NCBI GenBank assembly: GCA_038046765.1 | Contig: JBBSVN010000004.1 | Span: forward strand, 1 to 64,000 | Direction: 5' to 3' | DNA: 64,000 nucleotides | DNA from: Candidatus Micrarchaeota archaeon | Lineage (GTDB): Archaea > Micrarchaeota > Micrarchaeia > Anstonellales > Bilamarchaeaceae | In this document: one piece after another, positions 39,245-58,084 of the stretch | How the letters are laid out: every line of letters starts with the position of its first letter | Numbering within the stretch: the first letter of the stretch is position 1 | Made by a program: the position numbers and the translations under genes | The notes under the pieces: model-generated | Told to the model about the DNA's origin: nothing | The model's input: only the letters and a program-made list of their open reading frames with translations | The model's database searches: none

Positions 39245-40468
39245 ATGAAAAAAGTAATTGGCAATTTATTCCTGGTTTTGTTTGTAGTGTTTTTTTTATT
39301 TGGATGTTCTGGAAATACACAACTACAAGATAAAGTTGTGAAAGACGAAATTGCTAAAACAACCCAAAGTGAATTAAATCAAACAAATCAATCGGATCAG
39401 ACCCAGATTATAAATTCTAAAGAAAACTCAGTTAATGTGCAAACGAATAATACAAATGAAAATACGGTTTCAAATTCTAATTCGCAAACGCTTCCGCTTT
39501 TATCACTAGGTGATGGTAAATATTCTACATCTCTTAAAGCAGGGTATGTTTATACCTGTAACGCTAATTTTAATGGAGGAGGTGCGTTTAAAGCAGGAGA
39601 ATGGATTAATGGAAGCTTTTGGAATGCATCTAAAAAAGTAACTGTTGATGGAAGTGTAAGCTGGCCAAAGAATTACATTAGTATCGAACTATCCGGCGAC
39701 ACAAGAACAATAAAAACAAACGGCTTACCAAGTCACAAAACCGGAAACTACCCAATTGCAACTAACGATGACGCATATAATTATGACCGAAATCCAAACT
39801 CGATTAAAGAGCAAAGTTTTACGCTTAGTGTTCCTAAAGATCCAATAGTAGTTAACGCACCTTATTGTACCAGTTTGGGAATAATCGCAATTTCTACAAC
39901 AGGAGTTCCGATATTTAACGGTTTTGACGCTGGAGGAAGGGATGCAGTAGCAAATGAAATTCAAGATGTTTGTGATGGCCACCCAGATATAAGTGGGACA
40001 TATCATTATCACTCTGGAAGTAGCTGTATACTAGATTCTTCAAAAGGCGAAACTCATTCTGATTTAGTTGCGTATGCGATTGATGGGTTTGGCTTGTATG
40101 GTAAGTATGGTGAAAATGGCAAACTTTTATTTACAAAAGACCTTGATGAATGTCATGGACACACACATATAATTTTATGGGATGGTAAAACTAAAGAAAT
40201 GTATCACTACCACAGTAGCCCAGATTTCCCATATACGATTTCTTGTTTTAGAGGTACAAAAAGTACAGTTAGCGGAGAAACAGTTGTTTCTGGGTCAACA
40301 AATTCTGCGAGTAATGGTCAAACTCCACAGGCACCTTCTGCGCCTAAAGAAGCAATAGATGCTTGCGTTTACAAAAAAGAAGGTAATTCGTGTAGCTTTA
40401 ATGGAGCACGCGGAATGGTTTCTGGTACGTGTAAAACAACTTCAGATGGATTTGCATGTGTGCCTTAA
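39245..40468 (+). CDS. YHYH-domain lipoprotein
   Basis: LFGC lipobox; DVCDGHP..GTYHYH, LDECHGH..YHYH. Confidence 0.88.
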   Translation: MKKVIGNLFLVLFVVFFLFGCSGNTQLQDKVVKDEIAKTTQSELNQTNQSDQTQIINSKENSVNVQTNNTNENTVSNSNSQTLPLLSLGDGKYSTSLKAGYVYTCNANFNGGGAFKAGEWINGSFWNASKKVTVDGSVSWPKNYISIELSGDTRTIKTNGLPSHKTGNYPIATNDDAYNYDRNPNSIKEQSFTLSVPKDPIVVNAPYCTSLGIIAISTTGVPIFNGFDAGGRDAVANEIQDVCDGHPDISGTYHYHSGSSCILDSSKGETHSDLVAYAIDGFGLYGKYGENGKLLFTKDLDECHGHTHIILWDGKTKEMYHYHSSPDFPYTISCFRGTKSTVSGETVVSGSTNSASNGQTPQAPSAPKEAIDACVYKKEGNSCSFNGARGMVSGTCKTTSDGFACVP

Positions 40469-41511
40469 ATCTTCATTTTTTCTATCGCTTCGTTAAGTAA
40501 ATCTTCGTTTTGGTTAACACAAATCCTTATGAATTTTTTATAATTCCCAAACCCACCCCCTGGCGATACGGCAACTCCTTTTTCTAAACAGGAAAGCGCA
40601 AACTCCCCGGAATCAGTTATGTCCGCTCTGGTTGCGAATACATATATTCCAGATTGTGGTTTTGCAAATTTAAACCCATTTTTTGTCAGAGCTTTTTCTG
40701 CAACTTCGAGCCTTGCTTTCCATAGATTTCGATTTTGTCTAATTATTTCTTCTTCGTTTTCTAAACAGGATAATCCAGCCATTTGGACAAATGGTGCAAC
40801 GCAGGTTGTCGTGATCTGATTAAATTTCACAATTTTCTTAACAATATCTTTTGGCGCGATTGCATAACCTAGCCTCCAACCTTCCATATTAAACTCTTTA
40901 GAAAATGAACGAACTCTTATCGCACCCTCATATCTTGAAATTTTTGTAAAAGACAATTCCTTATATGCTTCATCAAGTATTACATGATTTCCTTTTTTAT
41001 TTGCGTTTTCAATAACGTTTTTTATTGATTGATCAGTATAAACTGTACTTGTGGGATTAAGCGGATTGCAAATAACGGTTATTTTTGAATCAGGCATCTT
41101 GTGCGAATCAAACTGCCAATTACCCTCAAGCCCAGTTTCGATACCATGGAATTTCAAACCAAGCTGTTCGCAAGCTAACTGATAAGCAGGCCAGTATGGG
41201 CCAGGTGTAGTTACGCTTTCGTCTTTTTTTGCCAAAATATTTAATAATGCAAATATCAAATGTTTTGAACCAGGACCGACTACAACTTCATCAATATCGC
41301 AATTTTCCCGCTCGGCAATTTTTTGTCGGAATTCATTTATTCCAGCTCCTGAAACGTAACCGGATTTCGTTTCTTTAATTGATTTAATTGCTGCATCAAT
41401 TGCGGGTTTTGGTGTCGGCAAATTAGTGTCTCCGATGTTTAGTTTTATTATCTTCCTGCCAATTCTCTCAAGCTCAAAAACTTTTTCAGCTAATTCGTAG
41501 AAAGTTACCAT
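40465..41511 (-). CDS. Class I/II PLP aminotransferase (likely aromatic aminotransferase)
   Basis: CNPLNPT, DEAY, SFSKEFNMEGWRLG; last gene of the aro/phe/tyr operon. Confidence 0.9.
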   Translation of the reverse strand: MVTFYELAEKVFELERIGRKIIKLNIGDTNLPTPKPAIDAAIKSIKETKSGYVSGAGINEFRQKIAERENCDIDEVVVGPGSKHLIFALLNILAKKDESVTTPGPYWPAYQLACEQLGLKFHGIETGLEGNWQFDSHKMPDSKITVICNPLNPTSTVYTDQSIKNVIENANKKGNHVILDEAYKELSFTKISRYEGAIRVRSFSKEFNMEGWRLGYAIAPKDIVKKIVKFNQITTTCVAPFVQMAGLSCLENEEEIIRQNRNLWKARLEVAEKALTKNGFKFAKPQSGIYVFATRADITDSGEFALSCLEKGVAVSPGGGFGNYKKFIRICVNQNEDLLNEAIEKMKI

Positions 41512-41516
41512 AGAAT

Positions 41517-42311
41517 TTACCCAATATTTTTCCTTAATTTATCAAAAAATCTTTTAGCTTCTTCATAATCTTTTGCTTTGATTACGTGTTTTAAAAACTC
41601 CAACCGATTGGTTATCTTTTCAAGTTGAGCTAGCGAATAGCTATTAAAAAGGATTTCGGCTAGTAAGTGATCATCTTCTGATAAAAGCCCCTTTGCAATT
41701 GTTTTATGTCTTTTAAATGTCGTACCAGGAACTGCAGTTTTATCCATGCATGAAGCAAAAACTAACGATGAAGCAAACGGAGTAGTTAGTGAATAAGCCA
41801 TCATCTGATCATGCTCTGCAAATGTATACTCAAATATTTTTACCCCCAACCTAGTAAAGAGATTTCTAAAAAATTCTTTAGTTTCTGGATCGCTTTCTTT
41901 TATTAGTACAGCATTTTCCTCTTTTAATGAATCCATCGTAGCAAAAGTTGGTCCGAACATCGGATGGACGGAACAGAACTTAAAACCAGATTTATTATAG
42001 AATTCTTCCAACCCGCGCTTAACCGAAGCAACATCGCCAATTACACAAGATTTTGGTAAATATCTGACTACTTCTTCAAATGCCTTAATTGTATTTTGCA
42101 AACTTACTGCATTTATTAGTAAATCAGGTGCAAATGATGAAATTTCTTCGATCGTATGCAAAGCGTTTGTATTAGTTTCTTTGGCAACTAATTCCGCTCT
42201 TTTTGAGTCATTATCATATACAGCGATATTAGTCCCATTTTCTTTAGCTAGTTCTTTAGCAAGAAAAGAACCCATCTTCCCGCAACCGATTATTGCGACT
42301 TTAGTTATCAT
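41517..42311 (-). CDS. tyrA: Prephenate dehydrogenase
   Basis: GCGKMG, DVASVK, VHPMFGP, EHDQMMA. Confidence 0.92.
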   Translation of the reverse strand: MITKVAIIGCGKMGSFLAKELAKENGTNIAVYDNDSKRAELVAKETNTNALHTIEEISSFAPDLLINAVSLQNTIKAFEEVVRYLPKSCVIGDVASVKRGLEEFYNKSGFKFCSVHPMFGPTFATMDSLKEENAVLIKESDPETKEFFRNLFTRLGVKIFEYTFAEHDQMMAYSLTTPFASSLVFASCMDKTAVPGTTFKRHKTIAKGLLSEDDHLLAEILFNSYSLAQLEKITNRLEFLKHVIKAKDYEEAKRFFDKLRKNIG

Positions 42312-43366
42312 TATATCGCCTCTTTGTAACATCCTAAAAACTTAAATGTCGGACTTTCTTTTTTGATTCTTTCTAATAATTCTGCAATTTTTTTATCCTT
42401 GTCACTTCCTTGGAAATCAACTAAAAACACAAACTTACCCGGGTCGTTTGGTACTGGCCTTGATTCGATTCGTGTTAAGTTTGTCTTACTTTCGTAAAAC
42501 AGCTTAATTATTTCAAAAAGTGCTCCTGGCTTATGCGCTGTAGAAAATATTATCGAGCATTTATTACCTACTTCTTTACTGTAATCTTTGGATAATACAA
42601 CAAAACGAGTAGTGTTTGAAGTATGATCTTCGACATTCTCCTTTAAAACTTCTAGATCGTATAATTCGGCGCATAATTTACTTGCAATTGCAGCAGCCCC
42701 GTTTGGTTTATCCTTTGCAACCATCATCGCAGCACCAGCAGTATCATAATACGGCCTTGCTTCTAGTTTATTTCGCTCTGTAAACCCGCGGCATTGTGCT
42801 AATGCTTGGGGATGAGAATACACCATTTTTATTTCACGATAATCTGTTTCAGGAGGTGCAAGTAAACAATGATGAACTGGAACCCGCACTTCGCCAACGA
42901 TTTTCAAGTCATATTGTATTAGTAAATCATTTACATCATTTATCTGCCCAGCTAAAGAGTTTTCTATAGGTACAATACCTAGATCTAACTGACCATTTTT
43001 AACGCTTTGAAAAACTTCTGTAAAATCACTACATGGAATTGCTACGGAATTAGGGTCATGGGTTTTTACTGCCATCTCACTATACGCTCCATGTTCGCCT
43101 TGAAATCCGATTAACTTTAGATTTTCTTTTTGTAATCTTTTGGATTCAGACATTATTTCTTGGAATAACTTTTGTGAAAACGCATTTGAAATTAACCCCT
43201 TTGACTTTGATGAAATTTTGGTCATCACATCTTTTTCTCTTTGTTCGTCACTAACTTCATTTTTAAGTTTTTTTGTTCGTACAGCAATTTCCATCCTATC
43301 GCTTAGTAATTCCAGTATATCGCCATCAATTTTGTCTATTTTTTTCCTTAGTGTGTTTAATTCCAT
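42311..43366 (-). CDS. pheA: Chorismate mutase/prephenate dehydratase (P-protein)
   Basis: LRKKIDKID; FQGEHGAYSE, PIENS, SHPQALAQC, NTTRF, LTRIESRP. Confidence 0.95.
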   Translation of the reverse strand: MELNTLRKKIDKIDGDILELLSDRMEIAVRTKKLKNEVSDEQREKDVMTKISSKSKGLISNAFSQKLFQEIMSESKRLQKENLKLIGFQGEHGAYSEMAVKTHDPNSVAIPCSDFTEVFQSVKNGQLDLGIVPIENSLAGQINDVNDLLIQYDLKIVGEVRVPVHHCLLAPPETDYREIKMVYSHPQALAQCRGFTERNKLEARPYYDTAGAAMMVAKDKPNGAAAIASKLCAELYDLEVLKENVEDHTSNTTRFVVLSKDYSKEVGNKCSIIFSTAHKPGALFEIIKLFYESKTNLTRIESRPVPNDPGKFVFLVDFQGSDKDKKIAELLERIKKESPTFKFLGCYKEAI

Positions 43367-43405
43367 ATTTATCACCTAAACGTAATTTTTTTCTTATTTT
43401 ATTAT

Positions 43406-45787
43406 TTATTTTATTGAGCATATAGATCGCAAATACAAATCTAGTATTGCAATAGCAACAGTATTTTCAACAATTATTGGTGCTCTTATTGCAACGCATG
43501 GGTCATGACGACCAAGTACACTTAATTTAGCATTTTTATTTGTTCGCACATCTATCGTGTCCTGTTCTTTTGAGATTGATGAGGTTGGCTTTATCGCAAC
43601 CCTGCAAACTAATGGCATGCCATTTGTAATACCACCTTGTATGCCTCCAGAATTATTTGTCGTTGTAATAACCGACCTACCTTCGATCGTAAATGCATCA
43701 TTATTTTGACTTCCCCTAGTTGCTGCACCGGCAAAACCCGAACCAAATTCAACTCCCTTAACCGCTGGAATGCTAAATAAGTATTTTGAAAGAACAGCGT
43801 CTACTGCGTTAAAAATAGGCTCGCCAATTCCAACAGAAAGTCCATGAACTTGCAGTTCGATTACACCGCCAAGCGAGTCGCCTTCTGATTTTATTTTCTC
43901 TATTTCTTGTTGCATTTTTGCGCTTAATTCTAAACTAGGACACCTAACGGGGCTTTTATATGTATTAACTAAAGCTTGTTCAAAGCTAGGCATTTTTTCC
44001 ATTTTTATTTCTCCGATTTGTTTGACATATGCTGCAAATCTTACTCCTTTTTCTTCAAGAATTTGTTTTGCAATCGATCCTGCAATTACTGTAAGTGTAG
44101 TAATTCTTGCAGAAAGGAACCCACCACCACGAAAATCAAAAACGCCATTGTATTTGATTAGAGTAGTGTAATCTCCATGGTTTGGCCTTGGAGTAAATCT
44201 AGTTATTTCGTATGGTTTTGAATTTACGTCCTTGTTTTCTATTTCAAATACAATCTGCTCGCTGGTAACGACTCCGTTTTCGATACCTTGCACCAAACTA
44301 AATTCATCTCGCTCCCTCCTAGAAGTCGTAAGGTTTCCAAATGGTCTTCTTTTGTCTAAATCGACACGTATTTTTTCCATGGAAACTTTTGTTCCGATTG
44401 GAATTCCGGTCATTTTTATTCCGATTAGTTTTTCATGCGAACCTCCGTAAAGACGCACTTTGAACTCTTGACCAATTGGTGCAGTCTGGCTAAGCATTGT
44501 CGCACCCAATTTTCGCATATCACAAAAGAAATCAGGGTAAGATTTTGCAATAACTTCGGGATTTTCTATAATTGTTTGTCCATCCGCAATCATGCCAGCA
44601 ATTGCACACGACATTGCGATCCTATGGTCATTATGTGGATCTATTTTCGCACCATGCAGACGAGTAACTCCAATTATTTCTAAAGAATCGGGTTTTTCAG
44701 TGATTTTAGCTCCCATTTTAGTTAATTCGGTGGCTATGGAACTTAATCGATCGCTTTCTTTTATTCTAAGCCTTCCTGCATTTTTAATTTTTGTTATTCC
44801 TTTTGCTTGCGTAGCAATTGTAGCTAATATCGGAACTAAGTCTGGAATATTACTTGCATCGATTTCTGTTGCAATTAATTCTGACCTTTTGACTACTAAG
44901 GAATCTTGTTTTTCTTCGATCTTAGCACCCATTCTTTTAAGAATCGAAATAATTTCACGATCGCCTTGAATAGACTGCACATTCAATCCTTTAATTTCAA
45001 TTTCTGGACCAACAATAACTCCTGCAGCAATTAAAAATGCAGCTCCGGACCAATCGCCTTCAACAATATAGATGCCAGGTGATTTGTAGAATTGATTGCC
45101 TTTGATCGTGAATTTTCTAGGATTTGTTGGGTCGTCCATTTTAACATTTATTCCAAAATCATTTAGAGTTACAATCGTCATTTTAACATAAGAAAATGAC
45201 TCTAAATTTCCTAAAATTTCAATTTCGCTATCTTTTTTGGCTAAAGGTAATGCTAAAAGAAGGCCGCTTATGAATTGAGAGGACACATCCCCACGAATTT
45301 GTATCTTTCCTCCGATTAATCCCCCCGCTATTTTTACAGGGGACAAATTAGAACGATCATCTATTTTTGCACCTACTTTCTTTATTGAATTAGTTAAGTC
45401 ACTAATTGGTCGTTTTAGTAGTCCTGCTTTACCAGTTAAATTTATTTGATTATTGATAAGTGCGCAAATTGGAATCAAAAATCTTAAAGTTGTACCAGAT
45501 TCATTGCAATCGATAGTTAAAATATCATTGATTTTTTTGAACATGATATTGTTGGATCCGTCAACTTCAATGCTATTTTCAGTATAATCAATTTTAGCCC
45601 CAAGAGCTCTTAGTGCACTAATTGTGGCAGATATATCACTGGAAAACAGTGGATTTTGTATTAAGGTTTTTCCCTTTGTTAAGCCGGCTGCAAAAAGAGC
45701 ACGATGAGTATAACTTTTAGATGGTGGTGCAGCAATTGGACTGTTTTGAAGTTTTGAGTTTCGTACTAATATCTCCAGTTCACTCAT
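43406..45787 (-). CDS. aroA: Fused EPSP synthase (AroA) and chorismate synthase (AroC)
   Basis: PPSKSYTHR, SSQFISG, RIKESDR, DHRIAM, KSYPDF; then GGSH, IPAVKGVEFG, GGIQGGITNG, KPTSS, GRHDPC. Confidence 0.93.
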   Translation of the reverse strand: MSELEILVRNSKLQNSPIAAPPSKSYTHRALFAAGLTKGKTLIQNPLFSSDISATISALRALGAKIDYTENSIEVDGSNNIMFKKINDILTIDCNESGTTLRFLIPICALINNQINLTGKAGLLKRPISDLTNSIKKVGAKIDDRSNLSPVKIAGGLIGGKIQIRGDVSSQFISGLLLALPLAKKDSEIEILGNLESFSYVKMTIVTLNDFGINVKMDDPTNPRKFTIKGNQFYKSPGIYIVEGDWSGAAFLIAAGVIVGPEIEIKGLNVQSIQGDREIISILKRMGAKIEEKQDSLVVKRSELIATEIDASNIPDLVPILATIATQAKGITKIKNAGRLRIKESDRLSSIATELTKMGAKITEKPDSLEIIGVTRLHGAKIDPHNDHRIAMSCAIAGMIADGQTIIENPEVIAKSYPDFFCDMRKLGATMLSQTAPIGQEFKVRLYGGSHEKLIGIKMTGIPIGTKVSMEKIRVDLDKRRPFGNLTTSRRERDEFSLVQGIENGVVTSEQIVFEIENKDVNSKPYEITRFTPRPNHGDYTTLIKYNGVFDFRGGGFLSARITTLTVIAGSIAKQILEEKGVRFAAYVKQIGEIKMEKMPSFEQALVNTYKSPVRCPSLELSAKMQQEIEKIKSEGDSLGGVIELQVHGLSVGIGEPIFNAVDAVLSKYLFSIPAVKGVEFGSGFAGAATRGSQNNDAFTIEGRSVITTTNNSGGIQGGITNGMPLVCRVAIKPTSSISKEQDTIDVRTNKNAKLSVLGRHDPCVAIRAPIIVENTVAIAILDLYLRSICSIK

Positions 45788-47120
45788 TTTTTACACCTTT
45801 TATTAATCCTAAATTTATGGCTTCGCAAATTATTTGAGTTGTAACCTCTTGAGGCAATTTGTCTTGGGTTGAAATTATTACATCACAAGCTTCTGCATAT
45901 AATCCTAATCTATTTTTCATTACTTTTCTTAAAATTCCTAACTTATCGGGAAAATTTACCAAGGGTCTGCTTTGATCCCCGATGGTCCTATTAACGATTG
46001 TTTCGGGTTTTGTATAAAGCCAAAAAACCAAACAATGTTTTTTTAGTTTTTCTACATTTTCTATGTCCAAAATTGCACCGCCCCCGCAGGAAATAACTGA
46101 ATTCTGGGCGTGAGCAATCTTACTCATTTCTTCCTTTTCTAATTCCCTAAATTTTGTTTCACCATGAATTTCAAATATATCTTTTATTTTCGTTCCATTT
46201 ATAGTTTCAATATTCTGGTCAACATCGATCAGTTTTAGGTTAGTTTCTTTGGCAATTAGCTTTGCTACTGTAGATTTACCAGAACCCATTAGACCAACTA
46301 AAGCAATATTTTGCGGTTTTGCATGTGCCTTAGCTAATACTTTTCGCATAATTTCTATAGGAGCAGTCTTACCAGTAAAAATCTCAAATGCTTTTACACC
46401 TTGGTAAAGCAACCATTCGCTTCCGTTGATAATTTTGCAACCTAGTTCGATAGAATCTGTTAAGAGTGCTGTCTTTTTGGAATAATTTGCATCTAAAACT
46501 ACTAATTCTTTTGAGAGGAGTTCTTTTGGAATTAACTGGTCGAGCGTATTTGCTGTGCTAACAATTGCAACTGCATTTACTAAAGCTTGCGTTAAATCTG
46601 AACTAGATAAAGAACAATAATCGCAACCTAGCCTATTCGCAATATCTTTAGCTTTTTCAATTGTTCGATTCGCAATTACAACCTGTGCCCCCTCTGAAAG
46701 TAAACCTAACGCAGCAGCTTTTGCAGCGCCTCCAGCTCCAATTACAACGAATTTATTTCCGTTAATTTTTACCCCATTTGCTTCAAGTGCTTTGGTAACT
46801 CCTAGGACATCGGTGTTAAATCCATGGAGTTTACCATTTTCTATTTTTATTGTGTTTACTGCACCAAGTAATTTAGCTTCTTGATTTAGTGTATCGCATT
46901 TTTGTGCCATTTCTTCTTTGAACGGCGCAGTAATATTTAATCCTAAGATTCCTAAGTCTTTTGCAAGCGCAATAGCTTCATCCGCATTATTTGCAGCAAT
47001 TCGTACGTATTTGGCATCTATACCTAATTCTTCAAGTCCAGCATTATGCATGTTAGGGCTAAGGCTATGTGAAATAGGATTACCCACAACTGCGTAAAGT
47101 TTCATGCTTTCTTGTTTCAT
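45780..47120 (-). CDS. aroE: Fused shikimate dehydrogenase (AroE) and AroK-type shikimate kinase
   Basis: HSLSP, NITAPFK, NTD, GAGGAA; then GLMGSGKST, FRELE, SCGGG, RPL. Confidence 0.93.
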   Translation of the reverse strand: MKQESMKLYAVVGNPISHSLSPNMHNAGLEELGIDAKYVRIAANNADEAIALAKDLGILGLNITAPFKEEMAQKCDTLNQEAKLLGAVNTIKIENGKLHGFNTDVLGVTKALEANGVKINGNKFVVIGAGGAAKAAALGLLSEGAQVVIANRTIEKAKDIANRLGCDYCSLSSSDLTQALVNAVAIVSTANTLDQLIPKELLSKELVVLDANYSKKTALLTDSIELGCKIINGSEWLLYQGVKAFEIFTGKTAPIEIMRKVLAKAHAKPQNIALVGLMGSGKSTVAKLIAKETNLKLIDVDQNIETINGTKIKDIFEIHGETKFRELEKEEMSKIAHAQNSVISCGGGAILDIENVEKLKKHCLVFWLYTKPETIVNRTIGDQSRPLVNFPDKLGILRKVMKNRLGLYAEACDVIISTQDKLPQEVTTQIICEAINLGLIKGVKNE

Positions 47121-47121
47121 G

Positions 47122-47787
47122 TCAATTACCTAAATTTTTTCTTAAGTTTTTAATCGCTTCTTCAAGTGTTTTTTTGTCGATTTGCCCATCGGCAGTTTCT
47201 TTACCCGAGGATAACGAAACGTAAGTACAAAAACTCCCTAAAAGAGGAGCAATTATTCTTGTAATTTTTCCCTTTTCACCCATACCAATTACAATTAATT
47301 TTCTATCCAAGTCGCTTTGATCAAGTAGCCCAATTAGCCTCGCATTATCCCTCTCGTCATTGACTTTACAAGCTATTTTTGCAATATCTGCTCCGTCTGT
47401 AAAGCACCAATTTATTGTTTGCTTTAATTCTTCTCTTGAAGGCGTTTTTTCATAGTTATGGTATGAAAGAATAACTTTGCATCGCCTCGCTTTAGCAGCT
47501 GCAATAATTTCTTGTTTTATTTTATCTTCAGATTCAATTTCAACATCGACAAAATCTGCTCCTTGTTCTATTGCTTTAAGTAGGATTTCTTTTCTTTGTT
47601 GCTCATTCATCTGATTGTTAGGCCGGCATGTCGCGATCATCTTAGTTTTTCCTTTACTTGAAAGCAGATTAGATAAGTCAGTTAGCGAAAGTTTATTCTG
47701 ATCGAGCCTAAGTTCTGCTAAATCTAAACCTAAAAGTGCTGATTTACATTTTTCTAGTCCAACTTCAGCTATGCTAACACAGATCAT
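47122..47787 (-). CDS. aroD: Type I 3-dehydroquinate dehydratase
   Basis: ELRLD, SYHNY..TP, IAKIA, MGEKGKITR, TADGQ. Confidence 0.92.
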   Translation of the reverse strand: MICVSIAEVGLEKCKSALLGLDLAELRLDQNKLSLTDLSNLLSSKGKTKMIATCRPNNQMNEQQRKEILLKAIEQGADFVDVEIESEDKIKQEIIAAAKARRCKVILSYHNYEKTPSREELKQTINWCFTDGADIAKIACKVNDERDNARLIGLLDQSDLDRKLIVIGMGEKGKITRIIAPLLGSFCTYVSLSSGKETADGQIDKKTLEEAIKNLRKNLGN

Positions 47788-48812
47788 AGAATTTCACCAA
47801 TTTCTTCAATCGGAACTTCTTTCACAACTGATTTTCCAATCCCTTCTAAAAGCGCCATCTTAACATCAGTTCCTTTTTTCTTTTTGTCTTTGCTTATTGC
47901 ACCAATTATTGCATCTTTTTTAATATAATCTAACTGCGTTGGAAGTCCCAATTTTTTCAAAAGATTTTCGATTCTATCCTTATCCTCTTCTTTTAATGTG
48001 CCTTTTTTAACGCAAAGCTTTGCATCATAAACTGACCCTATCGCAACCGCTTCTCCATGAGGTAATTTATGTACTTTTTCTAGTGCATGAGCGATCGTGT
48101 GCCCAAAATTTAATTTAACCCGTTCATTTTGTTCTAATTCATCTTTTTGAACAATGTTTACTTTAACCGAAATTGCATCGCCAATTACTTTTTCAAGTGC
48201 AATACGTTTCATGCAAATAATATCCTCCAAGTTCGACTCTAAGTATGAAAATAAATTAGCATCAGCAATTACTGCGTGTTTTACAATTTCCGCAAATCCG
48301 CATTTTAGGTCTTCTTTTGGAAGCGTTTTTAGAAGTTCTAAATCGCATAAAACGAAATTTGGTTGTCTAATAGTACCAATTAAGTTTTTGTATCCATTTA
48401 AGTTTACCCCATTTTTACCCCCTATACTTGCATCTACTTGAGCTAGAAGTGTTGTTGGAACAAAACCAAATTTTAAACCACGTAAATAGGTACTAGCAAC
48501 AAACCCAGTTATATCGCAAACTACGCCCCCTCCAACTCCAACTATAAAAGTTGAACGCTCAACACCTAATTCTAGAAACTGCTCGTAAATATTCTCAACT
48601 GTCCTAAGGGTTTTTACATTTTCACCAGTTTCGATTTCAATTATTTGAAATCCGAATTCTTCGAGCTTGACGCGATGGTAATTTAACACATTTTTATCAC
48701 TAATAATTACTACTTGTGCACTTGCATCTAGGTAGTCTTTAAGGTTAGATACGTCTTCGCCAATCGCGATTTGCGTACTACCCGTATTTGTAGTTAATTG
48801 TATTTTTTTCAT
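47784..48812 (-). CDS. aroB: 3-dehydroquinate synthase
   Basis: [35 protein letters not shown]. Confidence 0.95.
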
Positions 48813-49630
48813 AAAGAACTCCTCATAAAATTATCAAGCGCCCGAATCTTTTTAGTCATTTTTGTAAAATACGCTGGCGTGAGTGCCTGATCTTTATCGC
48901 AAAGTGCTTCTGGGGGATTTCTATGAACATCTACAATTAATCCATCTGTCCCGCATGCTACTGCCGCTAAACTCATCGGCTCGATTAAAGTTATTTTTCC
49001 AGTAGCATGGCTCGGGTCAACAATGATTGGAAGATGAGTTAATTCTTTAACTGCAGGTACTGCACTTAGATCAAGGGTATTTCTAGTGTAAGTTTCATGA
49101 GACCGTATTCCTCTTTCACATAGAATTACATTTGGGTTTCCTTCGTTTAAAATGTACTCTGCGCAGTATAACCATTCTTCGATTGTTGAATACATTCCTC
49201 GTTTAAGTAATACTGGTTTGTTTGCTTTACCTACTTCCCTAAGTAATGAGAAATTCTGCATGTTTCTTGTTCCAATCTGAAGTACATCTGCGTATTCACA
49301 TACCCAATTTACATCTCTGGTATCTACTACTTCAGTTACGATTGGTAAACCAGTTACATCCCTTGCTTTTTCTAAGATTTTTAAGCCCTTTAATCCTAAA
49401 CCCTGGAAAGCGTATGGCGAAGTTCTTGGTTTAAACGCGCCTCCGCGAAGCATATCCGCTCCTGCTGCTTTTACCGCGATTGCAGTTTCTACAGTTTGTT
49501 CTTCACTTTCAACAGCGCATGGGCCAGCGATTATCGTTAACCCTTCACCTATTTTTACATTGCCAACTTTTACGATTGTTCTGCCGCTTCCGTTTAAACC
49601 GGCAAGTTTTATTTTTTTAATATCAACCAT
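48809..49630 (-). CDS. aroF: DAHP synthase (class I-beta)
   Basis: [31 protein letters not shown]. Confidence 0.95.
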
Positions 49631-49738
49631 TTTTTACACCTTGAATAAATTTTAGTTTTTCATTCCAATTTTTGTTTTCTCTTCAAATATAAAATATCAA
49701 AAAGCTAAAAAAATAAAGTTAACACTAAGGATTTTTTT

Positions 49739-49800
49739 AAAAACGCAACCAACACAAAAATTATTTTTTAAAATTTTTATTAAAAATTGTTAGTTGCACT
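49739..49800 (-). terminator. Hairpin plus U-run immediately after the aro leader peptide (attenuator candidate)
   Basis: AGUGCAACUAACA (49800-49788) pairs with UGUUGGUUGCGUU (49754-49742): 13 bp with 3 G-U pairs, ending in U5. Confidence 0.6.
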
Positions 49801-49901
49801 CAATAGTTAAAACTAAATCTAAAATTAAAGCTGAAGCTATAGAACCAGTTTGCATTTCTTGCAATTTTATTTAATGACATTTTGTCTTCAGCGTTTATCA
49901 T
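49800..49901 (-). CDS. Putative aromatic-amino-acid leader peptide MINAEDKMSLNKIARNANWFYSFSFNFRFSFNY
   Basis: 33 codons (26 from the second ATG at 49880); 9 of the last 15 are W/F/Y; ends 169 nt upstream of aroF. Confidence 0.75.
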   Translation of the reverse strand: MINAEDKMSLNKIARNANWFYSFSFNFRFSFNY

Positions 49902-50132
49902 TGTACTCAACCAACTAAGTTTCTCCAATCTAATACCTTAGAACTATCCTTTTGGATTGAGGACAGATCGAGATCGGCATATTTCCTGATCTCGAGATAT
50001 TAACACATTTTTACACTATTTATACAATATTATCCATAAAAGTATTTTTAAATGTTCCTGATTTAGAAACTAATTCTAGCTTCGCTTCGGGTAAAGCTAT
50101 ATTTTAAAACATTAAAGAGGTAAAATATTTTT

Positions 50133-50519
50133 ATGAAGTCCAAAATTATAATTGAAAAATATTTCAAAGCACTCGAAACGGGAAATTATGAACAGATGAT
50201 AAAATTATTCACACCAGATGCAGTAGTTCATTCTCCAGTATATGGTAATGTAAAAGCAAACGAATTTTATAAGAAATTATTTTCTGATACGTCTGAATCA
50301 AAAATTATATTATTAAATATTTTTGAAGGCAAAGACAACTTTACAGGCGCATGCCATTTTATGTATGATTGGAAACTTGCCAATGGAAAAGATATTTCTT
50401 TTGAATGTGTTGATGTATTCAAATTTTCTGATAGTGGACTTATCAAGGAACTTACAATTATTTATGATGCATCAGCGACTAGGCCAGCGCTCAAAAGGAT
50501 AAATAAAAATACAGGTTAG
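50133..50519 (+). CDS. NTF2/SnoaL-like protein
   Basis: YFKAL..LFTPDAVVHSP..VDVFKF..IKELTIIYD. Confidence 0.85.
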   Translation: MKSKIIIEKYFKALETGNYEQMIKLFTPDAVVHSPVYGNVKANEFYKKLFSDTSESKIILLNIFEGKDNFTGACHFMYDWKLANGKDISFECVDVFKFSDSGLIKELTIIYDASATRPALKRINKNTG

Positions 50520-51840: not shown

Positions 51841-52626
51841 TTAAATTATATTTTTCACAAACCCTTTGACATCACTTAATGCTTTTTCTTCTTCATTTAA
51901 TTTTCCGTTTTTATCAATGTATTTTGTGTAAATATTAATTATTTTACTTCCAACAATTACGCCATCTGCACCGGCTCGAATAAATTCCAGTGATTGCTCT
52001 TTATTTGAAATACCAAAACCAACAAAAAGATTATTTTTTCTGTTATTTATTTTGGCCAAATTTTGTGCAAATTCTTTTACTGATTTGACAAATTTTAAAC
52101 TTTCAATACTCGTACTAGTTCTTGCTCCTGTAGTTCCGGCAACTGAAACCAAGTATGTAAACAGCTTTTCTTTTTGAAGAATTTTTCTAGAGCGATCTAT
52201 TTGGGTGTTAGAAGAAATCAAATTAACTATCGAAATATTGTATTTTTCCGTCAGATTTTCAAATGTTTTATCTTCTTCAAACGGCAGATCTGGAATAATA
52301 ATTCCTTGAACTCCTACTTTGGCCATCCTCTGCAAGAAATTTTCCCTTCCATACGCATAAACAATGTTATAATAAGTCATGAAAACAAATGGAGTTTTGA
52401 TGTGTTCTTTCCTTAGAGTTTCTACCATCGAAAAGATTTTATCTGTGTTTGCTCCGCTTTTAAGAGCACGTTCGCTTGCTCCTTGAATCGTTTTTCCATC
52501 TGCAATCGGATCTGAAAAAGGAATCCCTAATTCTATTAAATAAGAATAAGGCGCGAGAGTTTTAACTAACTTGTAAGTAAAATCCAAATTCGGATCGCCA
52601 CAACAAACATAAGGAATAAATTTCAT
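51841..52626 (-). CDS. trpA: Tryptophan synthase alpha chain
   Basis: [33 protein letters not shown]. Confidence 0.96.
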
Positions 52627-53807
52627 AGATTTTCAGCCTCGTTTTGCTCTAACTTTGAAATTCGATCAACATCCTTGTCTCCTCTTCCGGAAAGGTTGAC
52701 AATAACTACAGAATCCTTCTGTGCAATCTTTGCAAGTTTTGGTAAGTATGCAATTGCATGAGCACTTTCAAGAGCAGGAATAATTCCCTCATCTTTAGAT
52801 AGAGAATAGAATGCGGCAAGTGCTTCGTTATCATCTATCGAAACATACTTAGCACGTTTACTATCGTGCAAATTTGCATGTTCTGGCCCAATAGCAGGAT
52901 AATCTAAACCAGCCGATATAGAATGTGTTTCTCTTACTTGCCCAAAATTATCTTGTAGTAAATAAGTAAGCGTCCCATGCAGTACTCCTTTCTTACCATC
53001 ACCGCTTATTCTTGCTGCATGTTTTTTAGTACTAAGACCTAACCCTCCAGCTTCAACTCCGATCATTTTAACATTTTTATGTTTTAAAAAAGCGGAAAAT
53101 AATCCTATTGCATTGCTTCCCCCACCAACGCAAGCAAGTAGATAATCGGGTAGCTTCCCTTCTTTTTCAAGAATTTGTTTTTCTGCCTCAACTCCAATAA
53201 CTGATTGGAAATGTTTTACTATACTAGGATACGGGTATGGACCAAGCGCCGAACCTAAAATGTAATGCGTATCTTTGAAATTTGTCGCATAATCCCGAAG
53301 CGCTTCATTTACGGCATCTTTTAATGTTTGTGAGCCAGATTCGACAATCTTAACCTCTGATCCAAGCAATTTCATCCTATAAACATTAAGCGCTTGACGC
53401 TCGGCATCTACTTTGCCCATGTAAACAACGCATTCTAAACCAAATAACGCTGCTGCAGTTGCGCTAGCTACACCATGTTGACCAGCTCCAGTTTCTGCGA
53501 TGATTCTTTTTTTATTCATGTATTTTGCTAAAAGTGCTTGACCAATTGTATTATTTATTTTATGAGCACCAGTATGTAGAAGGTCTTCTCGTTTAAGGTA
53601 AATTCTAAGACCAAATCTTTTACTTAGGTTTTCTGCAAAATAAAGCGGAGTAGGCCGCCCCGCATAATCTTTTAAGTAGTCCTCAAGTTTTTTATTAAAT
53701 TCTTTATCTGCAATTGCTCTTGCAAAACTTTCTTCAAGCTCTTGTAGTACCGGAACTAGTAATTCTGAAACGTATTGTCCGCCAAATTCTCCGAAGTTTT
53801 TTTGCAT
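52623..53807 (-). CDS. trpB: Tryptophan synthase beta chain (TrpB1)
   Basis: [36 protein letters not shown]. Confidence 0.97.
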
Positions 53808-53808
53808 T

Positions 53809-54585
53809 TTACAGAACACCTTTTAATTCGCGTATCTTTGCTTCTTGATTATCAGCTTTCCAAAGCGCAGATCCAACAAGTATCCCATTTGCTCCTGCAA
53901 CCTTGACAAACTTTGCATCCGCATAAGATTTGATTCCGCTTTCGCTTATAACAGGTTTATTTATCGTTCCACTAGCAGCAAGTATATCTTTAGTTCGATT
54001 CAGGTCAACTTTTAATGTTTGTAAATCTCGATTATTTATCCCTAGAACATCTGCCTTTGTTTTAGCTGCTCTTTTCATTTCATTTGCATTATAACACTCG
54101 AGCAAAACATCAAGACCGTTCTCATGAGCTAAATCTATAAAACTGTTAACATCCAGATTTAATCTGTCCATAACTTTCATTATTAAAAGAATACAATCTG
54201 CCCCATAATGTTTTGCAGCTTTAATCTGGACTGGGTCAATTACAAAATCCTTAAATAAAACCGGGAGTCCCGTTTCTTTAGCAATAGCTAAATTGTTCAA
54301 ATTTCCCTTGAATATTTTTGGTTCAACCACAACTGAAATCGCATCTGATCCACATTCCTTAAACCGCTTTGCTGTTTTTTCCACATCGATATTTTCAAAG
54401 GAGTATTCCCCAGCCGGTGAAGCATGTTTTATTTCAGAAATTAATATGAAACCACAATCACGTATTTTCTTTAGTAAGCTAACATGTTCAAAACTATTTT
54501 TAGTAATTTTTGCATCGTTTATATCGTAATAACCCGTCCGTACACTTTCTTTTGCGCATTCGATAAATTTATCTAGTATATCCAT
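53809..54585 (-). CDS. trpC: Indole-3-glycerol phosphate synthase
   Basis: EIKHASP, KDF, GINNRDL, SESGI; no fused TrpF domain. Confidence 0.95.
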
Positions 54586-55550
54586 TAGTATCGCCTCAAC
54601 ATTTCTAATTTTTCAAGTGATTTGCCTGAATCAATTGATTTTTCTGCAAGAGTTACCCCATATCTTATACTACCTGCGATTCCACTAACGTAAATTGCAG
54701 CACCTGCATTAAGAAGAACGATTTCACGAGCTGGTCCTTCTTTGCAATTTAACACTTCTAGAATTATGTTTGCACTTTCTTTTCGATCATTTGCACATAT
54801 TTTATCTAAACTTGAACGCTTAAACCCAAAATCTTCTGGCGAAATGGAATATAAATTAATTTTATAATTAGAGATTTCGCTTATGTTCGTATCCGCACTT
54901 ATACTGATTTCGTCAGTATCACTAGAAACAATCAAGGTTTTTTCTGTACCAATTTCACGAACGGATTTTGATAATTTCTCCAGAAGCGAAGCATCGTAAA
55001 CTCCAATGACCTGTCTTTTAGCATTTGCTGGGTTAGTTAATGGGCCAAGGACATTGAAAATAGTCTTAAAACCAAGCTCGCGTCTAGCTTCTGCAACGTT
55101 TTTCATTGCAGGATGATAAATGCGTGCAAAAAGGAACCCGATTCCGATCTCTTCGATTTGTTTTTCTACAGCTTTAGGTTCCAAATCAATCTTTACTCCA
55201 AGAGCTTCTAAGACATCAGAACTTCCGCATTTACTAGAAGCGGATCTATTACCATGTTTTGCAATGTTTACCCCTGCTCCTGCTGCAACAATTGCACTAG
55301 CTGTTGAAATGTTGAATGTATGATTGCCATCGCCTCCAGTTCCAGCAGTATCAACTAAATTTTTAACTTTTGAAGAAATCTTAACCATTTTTTCTTTCAT
55401 TAAATTTGCAAATGCAGCAATTTCTTCGCAAGTAACATTTTCGATTTTTAATTCTGTAAGAAAGGTTGCAATCTGAGAAGGATTATATCGATTTTCAAGA
55501 ATTTCTCTGAAGATTCTTATTTCTTCTTGTAATTGCAACTTGTCAACCAT
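54585..55550 (-). CDS. trpD: Anthranilate phosphoribosyltransferase
   Basis: GTGGDG..NIST, KHGNR, GPLTNP. Confidence 0.96.
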   Translation of the reverse strand: MVDKLQLQEEIRIFREILENRYNPSQIATFLTELKIENVTCEEIAAFANLMKEKMVKISSKVKNLVDTAGTGGDGNHTFNISTASAIVAAGAGVNIAKHGNRSASSKCGSSDVLEALGVKIDLEPKAVEKQIEEIGIGFLFARIYHPAMKNVAEARRELGFKTIFNVLGPLTNPANAKRQVIGVYDASLLEKLSKSVREIGTEKTLIVSSDTDEISISADTNISEISNYKINLYSISPEDFGFKRSSLDKICANDRKESANIILEVLNCKEGPAREIVLLNAGAAIYVSGIAGSIRYGVTLAEKSIDSGKSLEKLEMLRRY

Positions 55551-56133
55551 CTTTAGCACCATCTAAAAAGTTCTTAAGTATTTGTTTTCCTTCTTCGCTC
55601 ATTATAGATTCTGGATGAAATTGAATTCCAAATATTGGAAATTGTTTATGTCTTAGTGCCATTATTACATTGTCATCTGTACTTCTTGCAATAATTTCTA
55701 AACAACTAGGTAATGAAAATTCATCAGCAATTAATGAGTGATAGCGCATAATACTTAGAGGATTTTTTATATTCTTGAAAAGCCCATTTCCATTGTGGTT
55801 TATCTGACTAGTCTTTCCGTGCATTGGTTTTTGTGCTTTTATTACCCTGCCACCAAATGCGTTAGCTATGCCCTGATGCCCTAAACAAATACCTAAAACG
55901 GGAATAGACTTTCCAAGTTCTAGAATAACTTCCTTGCATTTACCAAAATCACGTTCATTTTCAGGATTGCCTGGCCCTGGTGAAATGACAATTTTAGAAT
56001 AATTCTTTTTCTTGATTTCTTCCAAATTAATTTGATTATTTCTGATTATATCTACCTTGCAACCTAATTCTCCTAGGTATTGATATAGGTTATATACGAA
56101 TGAATCAAAATTATCAATTAACAGAACGTTCAT
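55543..56133 (-). CDS. trpG: Anthranilate synthase glutamine amidotransferase subunit
   Basis: IDNFDSF, SPGPG, GICLGHQ, RYHSL, QFHPES. Confidence 0.96.
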   Translation of the reverse strand: MNVLLIDNFDSFVYNLYQYLGELGCKVDIIRNNQINLEEIKKKNYSKIVISPGPGNPENERDFGKCKEVILELGKSIPVLGICLGHQGIANAFGGRVIKAQKPMHGKTSQINHNGNGLFKNIKNPLSIMRYHSLIADEFSLPSCLEIIARSTDDNVIMALRHKQFPIFGIQFHPESIMSEEGKQILKNFLDGAKDG

Positions 56134-57463
56134 ATTTTTCTTCACCTATGGCTAAGAGTAATGGTTTTGCTTTTTGCTCGGTTTCTTCATACTCTTTTTG
56201 AGGAACGCTATCATAAACTATTCCCGCTCCCGATTGTATATATGCTTTATTTTTGTTTGAAAATAAAGTACGAATTCCTATTGCAAAATCCGCATTGTCA
56301 TTTGAAGAGAAGTACCCAACTGCCCCGGAGTATGGGCCGCGATTAGTTTTTTCTAATTCTTTTATAATTTCAATTGCACGTATTTTTGGAGCACCGGAAA
56401 CAGTTCCAGCAGGAAATATCGCTTCAAAAACATCTCCAGAATTTTTTCCTTCTTTTAGTTTGCCTTTTACAATTGAAGAGATGTGCTGGACATGCGAATA
56501 CTTACTAACTTTCATAAATTCTGGAACCGATACCGAACCGATTGCTGCGACTTTGCCAATGTCATTTCTTGTTAAATCAACAAGCATAAGATGTTCTGCT
56601 CTTTCTTTTGGATCATTAAGAAGTTCTGTTTCAAGTCGTTTATCTTCTTCAACAGTTTCCCCCCGTTTTCTTGTTCCAGCTAAAGTAGCATAGCTCGTAA
56701 TTTCTTGCCCTTCTAATCGAACTAGGTTTTCAGGACTAGAGCCAATAATTTGCCTCTCATCAAATTTCAGATAAAACATGTAGGGTGAGGGATTTATTGC
56801 CCTTAATTTTTTATAAAAAGAAATTAAGTTCCCAGAGTATTTTACTTCATATCGCTTTGAGAGTACAGATTGGAAAATGTCTCCGTTTCTTATGTGATCT
56901 TGTGCAATTTCTACATTTTCACAAAATTGTTCTTTAGTCAAATTACATTTTTTATTATACATTTCTAAAGGAGATGTGGAAAAAGAAGAATCTTTAACAG
57001 AATTTAGAATTTCATTTACTCGGTTTTCTTTTTGATAGACATATCTTAGAGTATTATTTAGATGATCGTAGATAATTACATCTTCATATATTCCGAATTC
57101 AAAATCAGGAAACCTCAGATCATTTTGAGTTTGTGCAGTAAACTTTTCTATATAATTTACATATTCAAAAGAGAAATAACCTACTGCTCCTCCAAAAAAT
57201 CCCTTTTCTTCTAGAGATGTTCTTGGAATGCATGATTTTAGGTCTTTTATCGGACTAATTGTATCTAGTTCTTGCCCATCGACCGTGATTACTCCACGAT
57301 TTAACTTTACTGTTTTTGTTGGAGAAAATCCTAAGAATGAGAATCTTGCCCTTTTTTGGTCTCCTTCGCTACTTTCAAGTAAGAAAGATGCACAAAAATG
57401 TTCATTTAGTATTGAGTATAAATCAGTTGGACTAACGTGCAAATCTAGATCTACTTTATGCAA
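56114..57463 (-). CDS. trpE: Anthranilate synthase component I (start uncertain: TTG 57463, or +1 frameshift from the uORF)
   Basis: LLES, NPSPYM, EHLMLVDL, PAGTVSGAPK, GAGIV. Confidence 0.96.
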   Translation of the reverse strand: MHKVDLDLHVSPTDLYSILNEHFCASFLLESSEGDQKRARFSFLGFSPTKTVKLNRGVITVDGQELDTISPIKDLKSCIPRTSLEEKGFFGGAVGYFSFEYVNYIEKFTAQTQNDLRFPDFEFGIYEDVIIYDHLNNTLRYVYQKENRVNEILNSVKDSSFSTSPLEMYNKKCNLTKEQFCENVEIAQDHIRNGDIFQSVLSKRYEVKYSGNLISFYKKLRAINPSPYMFYLKFDERQIIGSSPENLVRLEGQEITSYATLAGTRKRGETVEEDKRLETELLNDPKERAEHLMLVDLTRNDIGKVAAIGSVSVPEFMKVSKYSHVQHISSIVKGKLKEGKNSGDVFEAIFPAGTVSGAPKIRAIEIIKELEKTNRGPYSGAVGYFSSNDNADFAIGIRTLFSNKNKAYIQSGAGIVYDSVPQKEYEETEQKAKPLLLAIGEEKYERSVN

Positions 57464-57556: not shown

Positions 57557-57582
57557 TAAACATTTGTGTACAAAAATATACA
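57557..57582. promoter_or_regulatory. TRP-box-like operator between trpE and the regulator
   Basis: TAAACA-N4-TGTACA-N4-TATACA overlapping the TATA-like TTTAAA. Confidence 0.7.
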
Positions 57583-57583
57583 T

Positions 57584-58084
57584 ATGCTCGATATTCTTGA
57601 AAAATTCTTTGAAAATGCACGAGGAAGGAAACTTGTTGCTATTGAATTTTTACGTTTAGGATTAAAGGTAGATGGAACAGGTAAGATATATGTTGGTGAA
57701 ATAGAAATAGCTCCCACTAAGATTGGTAGAGCACTTGGAGTTGACCGGAGAGTAGTAATAGAAACAGCAAAAGAAATAGCGAATGATGAGAAACTACTAC
57801 AAATATTTTACAAACTTGAATCAAGGTCATTTATTGCGAATGCAGCAAAAGAATTTGGTTTTGATGTGGTTGAACTTAGAGCTAATCCAAAAGCAAAAGG
57901 AATTGTAGCAGAAGTTACTAAGATTTTAGCTGATTGCGGAATTGTTATTCGTCAAATTATAACTGATGATCCAGAATTATTTCCTGATCCTGTTTTGACA
58001 ATCATAATTAATGGAAAACTTAATGCAAAAGTAGTAAAAAAACTGAAGGAATTAAGTTTTATGGAGTCATTGAAGATCAGATAA
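57584..58084 (+). CDS. trpY: ACT-domain amino-acid regulator (COG2150/TrpY-like), divergent from the trp operon
   Basis: IEIAPTKIGRALGVDRRVV, GIVAEV..GIVIRQ..DDPEL; gene context. Confidence 0.8.
   Translation: MLDILEKFFENARGRKLVAIEFLRLGLKVDGTGKIYVGEIEIAPTKIGRALGVDRRVVIETAKEIANDEKLLQIFYKLESRSFIANAAKEFGFDVVELRANPKAKGIVAEVTKILADCGIVIRQIITDDPELFPDPVLTIIINGKLNAKVVKKLKELSFMESLKIR

Follow-up and report, generated by a model that had tools for sequence, protein, structure and literature searches.

A conserved aromatic-codon leader ahead of the aromatic amino-acid operon of Micrarchaeota, a candidate ribosome-sensed regulatory device

The aromatic operon and its leader reading frame

We analyzed a 64,000-nucleotide stretch of a Candidatus Micrarchaeota contig, termed here the window, whose minus strand carries an operon for the synthesis of aromatic amino acids. 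All eight genes of the operon, aroF-aroB-aroD-aroE/K-aroA/C-pheA-tyrA-aminotransferase, have open frames, and this gene content identifies Phe, Tyr and Trp as the cognate products; aroE-aroK (45780-47120) and aroA-aroC (43406-45787) are gene fusions. The first gene encodes a short form of DAHP synthase, for which the first 78 positions of the PRK08673 profile are missing, suggesting that the pathway's first enzyme lacks the N-terminal regulatory part. The assignment of the host to the Archaea, made initially from the letters alone, is borne out by the gene for the nuclease aCPSF1 (FttA) on the same contig (C4; TIGR03675, above cut-off) and by the nearest named aroF relatives, which come from Ca. 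Micrarchaeota, followed by Desulfobacterales, Bacteroidota and Thermoplasmata. The aroF tree (midpoint root, low supports) did not settle the direction of any transfer between archaea and bacteria.

The features of the locus, listed in the direction of transcription, are the following:

50045..50052, minus strand: TATA-like box TTTAAAAA, putative promoter
50019-50024, minus strand: second candidate promoter word, TATAAA
50002..50006, minus strand: word GTGTT, which in close relatives is the ribosome-binding word directly 5' of the leader ATG; here ATC comes next
49968..49995, minus strand: palindromic repeat with an 8-bp stem and a 12-nt loop, inside an insert of ~100 nt and outside the conserved leader
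49908..49915, minus strand: ribosome-binding region of the leader, GTTGGTTG, complementary to the stem 5' arm (protector pairing, from the fold of 49780-49920 and the covariation in relatives)
49901-49800, minus strand: leader reading frame of 33 codons, ATG at 49901, TGA at 49802-49800
49886..49892, minus strand: GCTGAAG, codons 4-6, pairing with the sensor word CTTCAGC at 49830-49836 (protector helix)
49803..49847, minus strand: sensor codons W19-Y33, WFYSFSFNFRFSFNY, with the family core F-S-F-S/G-Y
49788..49801, minus strand: 5' arm of the stem, in the zone covered by a ribosome that has reached the stop codon
49741..49787, minus strand: U-rich loop (49755-49787) and 3' arm (49741-49754), proposed termination signal
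49718..49728, minus strand: conserved downstream motif TTAGTGTTAAC, family consensus about YTAGWGKTAWTRAT
49698..49717, minus strand: further U-tracts, specific to this genome; relatives are A-rich here
48809..49630, minus strand: aroF, DAHP synthase (TIGR01361, 396 bits, cut-off 268)
40465..48812, minus strand: rest of the operon, aroB, aroD, aroE-aroK, aroA-aroC, pheA, tyrA, aminotransferase

The leader is spaced 169 nt from the DAHP synthase gene, and an in-frame TTG lies at 49928, upstream of its ATG. Its peptide reads as first described, with one W, six F and two Y in the last 15 codons and no aromatic residue in the first 18. When the 502-nt intergenic region was dinucleotide-shuffled 5000 times, 8 shuffles produced a short reading frame with at least nine aromatic codons in 15; 5000 shuffles of the region named by the sequence-only reading produced none, and for the window alone the figure was 8 of 20000. 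As an equally aromatic short frame occurs in 8 of the 1395 actual upstream regions in the genome, the single-genome statistic is not decisive. No other cognate-codon leader was evident among the 1136 short intergenic frames of this genome, whose downstream genes were judged by eye, and the three leader peptides looked for in the protein collection were absent. Using a sequence model derived from 35 relatives, with the window excluded, we obtained 49711-49906 as the top match within the 64 kb (17.1 bits, E 1.7e-4, filters off; next-best match 9.9), whereas the default filters missed the leader, identifying the window copy as a divergent member of its family.

GTGTT, followed here by ATC, would represent the ancestral start context, and the insert of ~100 nt lies between this context and the present ATG, which is why the TATA-like box of the window stands ~100 nt further from the leader start than that of the relatives. 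The hairpin at 49995-49968, also pointed out in the sequence-only reading, is present (z −2.4), but could not be upheld as a part of the device, because it is a repeat with other copies in the genome and its pattern recurs in only 1 of 80 other family genomes. Its core TCGAGA..TCTCGA occurs in at least four REP-like, intergenic copies, one at C3:49400-49429 with a compensatory change and looser ones at C8:45655-45682 and on C11 near 47404; at the aroF locus L002, a different palindrome cluster separates leader and aroF. The insert also holds a 16-codon reading frame (49930-49980, minus strand), with its stop one base before the in-frame TTG of the leader; it could supply ribosomes to the leader or be there by chance.

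Elsewhere in the window, a TrpY-like regulator gene (57566-58084, plus strand; 149.7 bits, below the cut-off of 180) is divergent from a trpEGDCBA operon (51841-57463, minus strand), the layout described for M. thermautotrophicus, so that the trp and aro operons may differ in their control. No aromatic leader was seen before trpE in the window.

Occurrence of the leader across genomes and pathways

We identified aroF in 22 of 61 relatives, some of the matches being weak, and in 70 of 401 genomes of the phylum; the 102 loci were reduced to 81 distinct ones by de-duplication. Leaders were called by a script picking the best aromatic short reading frame and then kept by eye. A leader is found at 40 of 42 close Micrarchaeota-like loci (aroF identity ≥74%) and at 14 of 39 distant ones (<74%), counts that are not independent as the genomes are kin. 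The proposal that a conserved cognate-codon leader heads the aro-phe-tyr operon is supported. The two close loci without a leader are L008 and L116; in the latter a ribosome-binding word of the leader type immediately precedes the aroF start, which resembles the outcome of a leader deletion. Wherever the nucleotide core is present, it lies in the Phe-Ser frame of a reading frame with a start codon (38/38).

The sensor zones of 53 leaders contain 412 aromatic codons, compared to 137 ± 9 when the bases of these zones are shuffled, and T-rich Leu, Ile and Val codons are in frame in just 16 of 866 cases. A T-rich background, the explanation raised at the outset against the aromatic enrichment, therefore does not account for it. 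The aromatic codons amount to 73 of 665 in the amino-terminal halves and to 358 of 694 in the carboxy-terminal halves, with F in 53, Y in 52 and W in 42 of the 53 leaders. Since the leaders were chosen for aromatic content, these codon totals describe the set more than they test it, and the 40/42 and 38/38 counts are the firmer ones. The core serine is invariably encoded by AGC (46/46), and two codons further on AGC swaps with GGC; among leaders, F, Y and W replace one another, the amino terminus and the length vary freely, and three leaders carry in-frame spacer insertions. In 25 of 39 leaders, a TATA-like word, the putative promoter, begins 42-57 nt upstream of the start codon. The distance from leader stop to aroF ranges from 72 to 465 nt, while stem and downstream motif stay beside the leader. 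The aroF of L137 belongs to an operon that begins with transketolase and has a Phe/Tyr leader at its head.

The exact core pattern was matched in 42 of the 401 genomes. Away from aroF, five matches precede genes of the ADH route, the archaeal alternative entry to the shikimate pathway that is non-homologous to the aroF route. In G009, G010 and G401 the leader heads operons of the type aspartokinase-(asd)-ADH synthase-DHQ synthase II, in G034 it heads aspartokinase-asd-ADH synthase, with DHQ synthase II on another contig, and in G214 it stands directly before ADH synthase. These are five of the 17 genomes with DHQ synthase II. Most of the remaining stray matches turned out not to be leaders. 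Judged from this genomic company, it is the pathway and not the gene that the leader follows. Its decay likewise accompanies that of the pathway, with aromatic codons thinned before an aroF of 37% identity in G194 and a leader frameshifted before a lone aroA-like gene in G151. The diverged aroF of G194 (locus L159) has kept its frame, and may have lost or changed its function. A family-type leader frame was moreover observed before genes without Pfam match in G014 (L204, C1 near 250173), a genome in which aroF was not found, and we read it as an orphan or re-used leader.

Based on codon content, frame and genomic distribution, the leader is very probably a codon-sensing, ribosome-sensed amino-acid device of the aromatic operon.

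Alternative RNA folds and candidate regulatory output

The sequence-only reading had described a 13-bp stem ending in U5 as an attenuating hairpin. The stem itself is confirmed and comprises 14 contiguous pairs including G-U (49801-49788 with 49754-49741, 33-nt loop), beginning on the G of the leader stop codon, whereas its reading as an attenuating hairpin is unsupported. Three of the five U at 49743-49739 lie within the stem and A7 comes next, intrinsic terminator calling found none in the window, and the fold is only moderately better than shuffles (z −1.7). In 38 of 39 archaeal leaders, the strongest helix 3' of the core begins no later than stop+11, that is under a ribosome at the stop codon, corroborating the suspected departure from the classical layout, and a U-tail follows this helix in a single one of the 39. 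The loops mostly measure 14-46 nt. An alternative fold between UUAGUU and AACUAA, suggested for the window, is feasible on paper but has no counterpart in the relatives, and the duplex of sensor core and stem 5' arm (−4.1 kcal/mol) does not exceed that of shuffles (−4.6 kcal/mol).

A different partner emerged for the sensor. In 39 close leaders the first codons pair with the sensor core at −13.2 kcal/mol, compared to −11.3 for non-cognate and −7.2 for shuffled combinations, and this protector pairing is better than the median in 34 of 39. The word before the start codon pairs with the stem 5' arm at −7.7 against −6.3 kcal/mol, where a control pair was also positive (p 0.006). With classes that were defined after the data had been seen, 27 of 43 leaders combine a GTGGT-type word with an AACC-type arm and eight a GTGTT-type word with a CCAAC-type arm; two are mismatched and six unclassified. 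In an alignment of 34 leaders, both helices together show 28 two-sided changes compared to 8.0 in shuffles, counted on the named structure; in the stem, five of the rows are shifted out of register. RNAalifold on a MAFFT alignment recovered only three pairs, as the variable loops misalign. The covariation of protector and stem thus indicates two exclusive folds, protector versus stem at the stop.

We then placed a ribosome footprint on the leaders and refolded them. With the ribosome at early or middle aromatic codons the stem probability exceeds 0.5 in 31-32 of 39 leaders, and with the ribosome at the stop in 0 of 39, the latter being a consequence of the geometry and the assumed footprint; for the window stem the values are 0.75 and 0.0, respectively. 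Ribosome-masked folding, suggested at the outset as a check, hence argues against a layout in which the stem is the terminator, because stalling favors it. Mutual exclusion of the two helices by ribosome position is in this way found computationally, by covariation and masked folding.

The sequence around the 3' arm is U-rich. In the 39 leaders, the 36 nt ending at this arm contain 45% U; the stretch ahead of the aroF start has 25%, the promoter region 23%, and ordinary same-strand gaps of this AT-rich genome also have 41%. At least two U4 runs occur within this zone in 27 of 39 leaders versus 1 of 26 regions before the aroF start. The conserved motif follows ~20 nt past the U-rich 3' arm; our guess is a polymerase pause site. 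Pairing of this motif with the end of the reading frame looks good in single leaders and yields an overall permutation p of 0.44, in a test that included one row (L044) with a faulty arm coordinate. Other candidates were likewise rejected: a second reading frame starting just 5' of the motif, where a start-like codon is common and frame and length are not conserved; pairing of the sensor with the aroF start (no signal, p 0.70); and frameshift or read-through into the first gene, as 3 of 43 leaders have an open first-gene frame ahead of the leader stop and all three offsets occur. An Rfam search of 49500-50200 returned one chance match (E 6.2).

Archaeal terminators do not need a hairpin, and aCPSF1 is described to bind best to RNA with two U4 tracts (PMC8716108); FttA, the CPSF73-family nuclease aCPSF1, engages U-rich nascent RNA over about 36 nt, and a coupled ribosome may, in a published hypothesis, sterically exclude it (PMC11616081). 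Both sequence features expected for aCPSF1/FttA action are present, namely two U4 tracts in U-rich RNA (27/39) and the factor gene on C4. Stem position, masked folding, the U-rich zone and these published properties together favor a model with an antiterminator stem and archaeal U-tract or aCPSF1 termination as output, to which we give an even chance. In this model, scarcity of charged tRNA-Phe, -Tyr or -Trp would stall the ribosome on the first or middle aromatic codons, where it would keep the protector open and the 5' arm free, so that the stem could form, tie up the U-rich arm and let RNA polymerase continue into aroF. With plentiful aminoacyl-tRNA, the ribosome would reach the stop codon, cover the 5' arm and then be released, and the U-rich loop and arm would emerge unpaired and ribosome-free for U-tract termination and/or aCPSF1 (FttA). 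As stem formation on stalling would be followed by read-through, the stem would take the part of the antiterminator and a terminator hairpin is absent; conserved and covarying, the stem is probably not a terminator. The more specific reading as a cleavage-based attenuator, in which ribosome-gated access of aCPSF1/FttA to a U-rich tract hidden by the stall-induced stem would replace the terminator hairpin, we put forward tentatively, at somewhat below an even chance.

Several results sit less easily with the antiterminator model, among them the 41% U of ordinary gaps in this genome. The unpaired probability of the U-runs in equilibrium folding does not rise at the stop (0.37, compared to 0.40-0.41 when stalled), since the freed arm re-pairs elsewhere, and the U-runs of the loop are partly exposed in both ribosome states. 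Furthermore, the stem forms in 27 of 39 leaders folded without a ribosome, so that a default-off state requires co-transcriptional kinetics.

The same sensor could alternatively have a translational output, in which the ribosome melts the stem and the released arm, rich in pyrimidines, base-pairs with the first gene's purine-rich initiation region, blocking translation of that gene; polarity may follow, in parallel to mycobacterial polycysteine leaders. Opening the initiation region indeed costs 4.8 kcal/mol during a mid-leader stall and 6.3 kcal/mol once the ribosome is at the stop, where it is harder in 22 and easier in 6 of 43 leaders, and at L200 a small hairpin covers the Shine-Dalgarno sequence only in the stop state. 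However, the complementarity of arm and initiation region is unspecific (−11.9 kcal/mol for cognate combinations against −11.7 for both non-cognate and shuffled ones; permutation p 0.38), pairing is stronger in a coding control, and the difference in the window is small (8.1 against 8.8). Given also the variable distance to aroF, of up to 465 nt, we consider this output unlikely.

A classical attenuator, with stem and U5 as a terminator after the ribosome has finished and an alternative fold favored by a stalled one, we regard as distinctly unlikely. U residues do trail the stem in the window and at L003, hairpins are described as able to enhance archaeal termination (PMC13675443), and the stem in unmasked folds is what release of the ribosome would lead one to expect. 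Yet the near-absence of U-tails and the stalling-favored stem speak against it, as does the lack of a conserved alternative partner 3' of the stall site, with loops of mostly 14-46 nt.

Very unlikely in our view is a purely kinetic uncoupling, in which stem and motif merely pause the polymerase while a parked ribosome excludes aCPSF1 and a released one admits it, in a Rho-like manner. It would fit the unchanged U-run accessibility, the published exclusion hypothesis (PMC11616081) and the conserved motif past the U-rich arm, which is otherwise unexplained, but it leaves the covarying protector helix and a ribosome-binding word mirroring the stem arm without explanation.

That the window copy is a relic of a functional family, disabled by the insert between promoter and start, appears highly improbable: the ATC after the ancestral start context, the score of 17.1 bits and weak single folds (z −0.55 to −1.7) would suit a relic, but the frame is intact with its nine aromatic codons, the operon is open throughout, and the new word before the start is, as in relatives, an 8-bp complement of the stem arm. 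Scarcely probable, finally, is an action of the peptide itself, by nascent-chain arrest through a free aromatic amino acid or as a small protein, because the F-S-F-S/G-Y core kept in most leaders is offset by the invariant AGC and its GGC swap, which mark a nucleotide constraint, by the interchange of F, Y and W, and by the free amino terminus and length.

Should the cleavage-based reading be true, Micrarchaeota would possess an attenuator portable between two non-homologous entry routes to shikimate. The element spans ~200 nt, exists in natural variants and in decayed copies, and has a bacterial counterpart ahead of the same gene. Two questions become testable in Thermococcus or Methanococcus, the regulatory use of transcription-translation coupling and the exclusion of FttA by the ribosome. 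The locus further suggests how small-genome archaea may tune a costly pathway whose first enzyme is devoid of an N-terminal regulatory part.

Comparison with known leader systems

In Archaea, attenuators were without direct experimental support according to a 2014 transcriptome paper (PMC4247193), and we found no later case in the open literature. The term attenuation appears nowhere in a 2021 review of archaeal coupling or a 2026 review of termination, and archaeal Ribo-seq papers report uORFs with, in their accessible text, no cognate-codon leader among them. The archaeal regulators described for aromatic pathway operons, TrpY and Tar, are DNA-binding proteins acting at initiation (PMC6737238) and, unlike the device proposed here, need no leader translation.

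A possible archaeal forerunner is the leuA-Halobacteria motif, which reportedly has been proposed to contain a Leu-rich short reading frame and would be a computational precedent. The motif, an archaeal RNA whose name refers to a gene of amino-acid biosynthesis, is represented in Rfam by a 53-position model (RF03001); it had no match in this genome and differs in pathway and lineage.

The mycobacterial polycysteine leader frames achieve attenuation free of a terminator, by stalling on cognate codons (10.1101/834739), two traits which the archaeal leader, as far as we infer, shares. Their output, as described there, is translational via sequestration of the ribosome-binding site, a specific pairing of a kind not found here, and they are leaderless, whereas the archaeal aromatic leaders have a ribosome-binding word.

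Enterobacterial leader attenuators combine a short cognate-codon frame, a protector helix and a competing helix favored by stalling (summarized in PMC11802643). The archaeal leader resembles trpL, pheL and pheM in all three respects and in its place before a biosynthetic operon. In contrast to these, it is devoid of a G+C hairpin with U-tail, the sole stem downstream of it begins beneath the terminating ribosome, all three aromatic codon types are combined in one leader, and polymerase and TATA-like promoter are archaeal. Closer in target is aroR of C. glutamicum, a Phe/Tyr leader before aroF at which stalling raises transcription (Neshat et al. 2014, as described in PMC11802643); both place Phe/Tyr codons ahead of a DAHP synthase operon, aroR being bacterial with a short F-Y-F motif.

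Further counterparts, unannotated leaders, precede aroF genes of the same clade (70-74% identity) in Desulfobacterales and Bacteroidota/Chlorobiaceae MAGs (for example L055, L068 and L049). The Desulfobacterales leaders have a core, FFSFR, similar to the archaeal one and a stall-favored helix starting in the last codons. Unlike the archaeal leaders, the bacterial ones retain one or two canonical terminators. Twenty-two bacterial aroF leaders were chosen by eye out of the same search; their best helix starts at stop+12 or later throughout, and in 17 of them a U-tail follows it. Six bacterial loci were given to the archaeal sequence model, which recognized none.

Several side observations accompany this comparison. 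Classical-looking loci in bacteria comprise L055, L061, L063-L066, L068, L071, L075, L078, L082-L084, L087, L090-L092 and L096 as well as L048-L050; in Desulfobacterales MAGs, Phe-rich attenuators with two tandem terminators lie before aroF regions, the Bacteroidota/Chlorobiaceae attenuators are Tyr-rich, and the leaders of L099, L100 and L102 are Trp-rich. In the tree, the aroF of L016 (G056:C42) falls together with a Clostridia protein; this locus has a bacterial-style leader with terminator, probably lies on a contaminant contig, and was left out of the archaeal counts. In the order of G410, labelled Thermoplasmata, a different conserved leader accompanies the same aroF clade (L258, L260, L262-L265, L043, L058), ending in F-S-A-Y/F-S-Y or L-F-S/Y-S-Y-R-Y; a word resembling a Shine-Dalgarno sequence comes next, together with a second start, and at L276 a Phe/Tyr leader is followed by a U-run.

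In the stalled-state fold of the bacterial leader L068, the antiterminator starts in the last codons, which is the place of the archaeal stem, and we therefore read the latter as an antiterminator and not as a terminator. Together, this comparison suggests that the sensing step is of the bacterial kind, while the single U-tail among 39 leaders points to an output that is wired differently.
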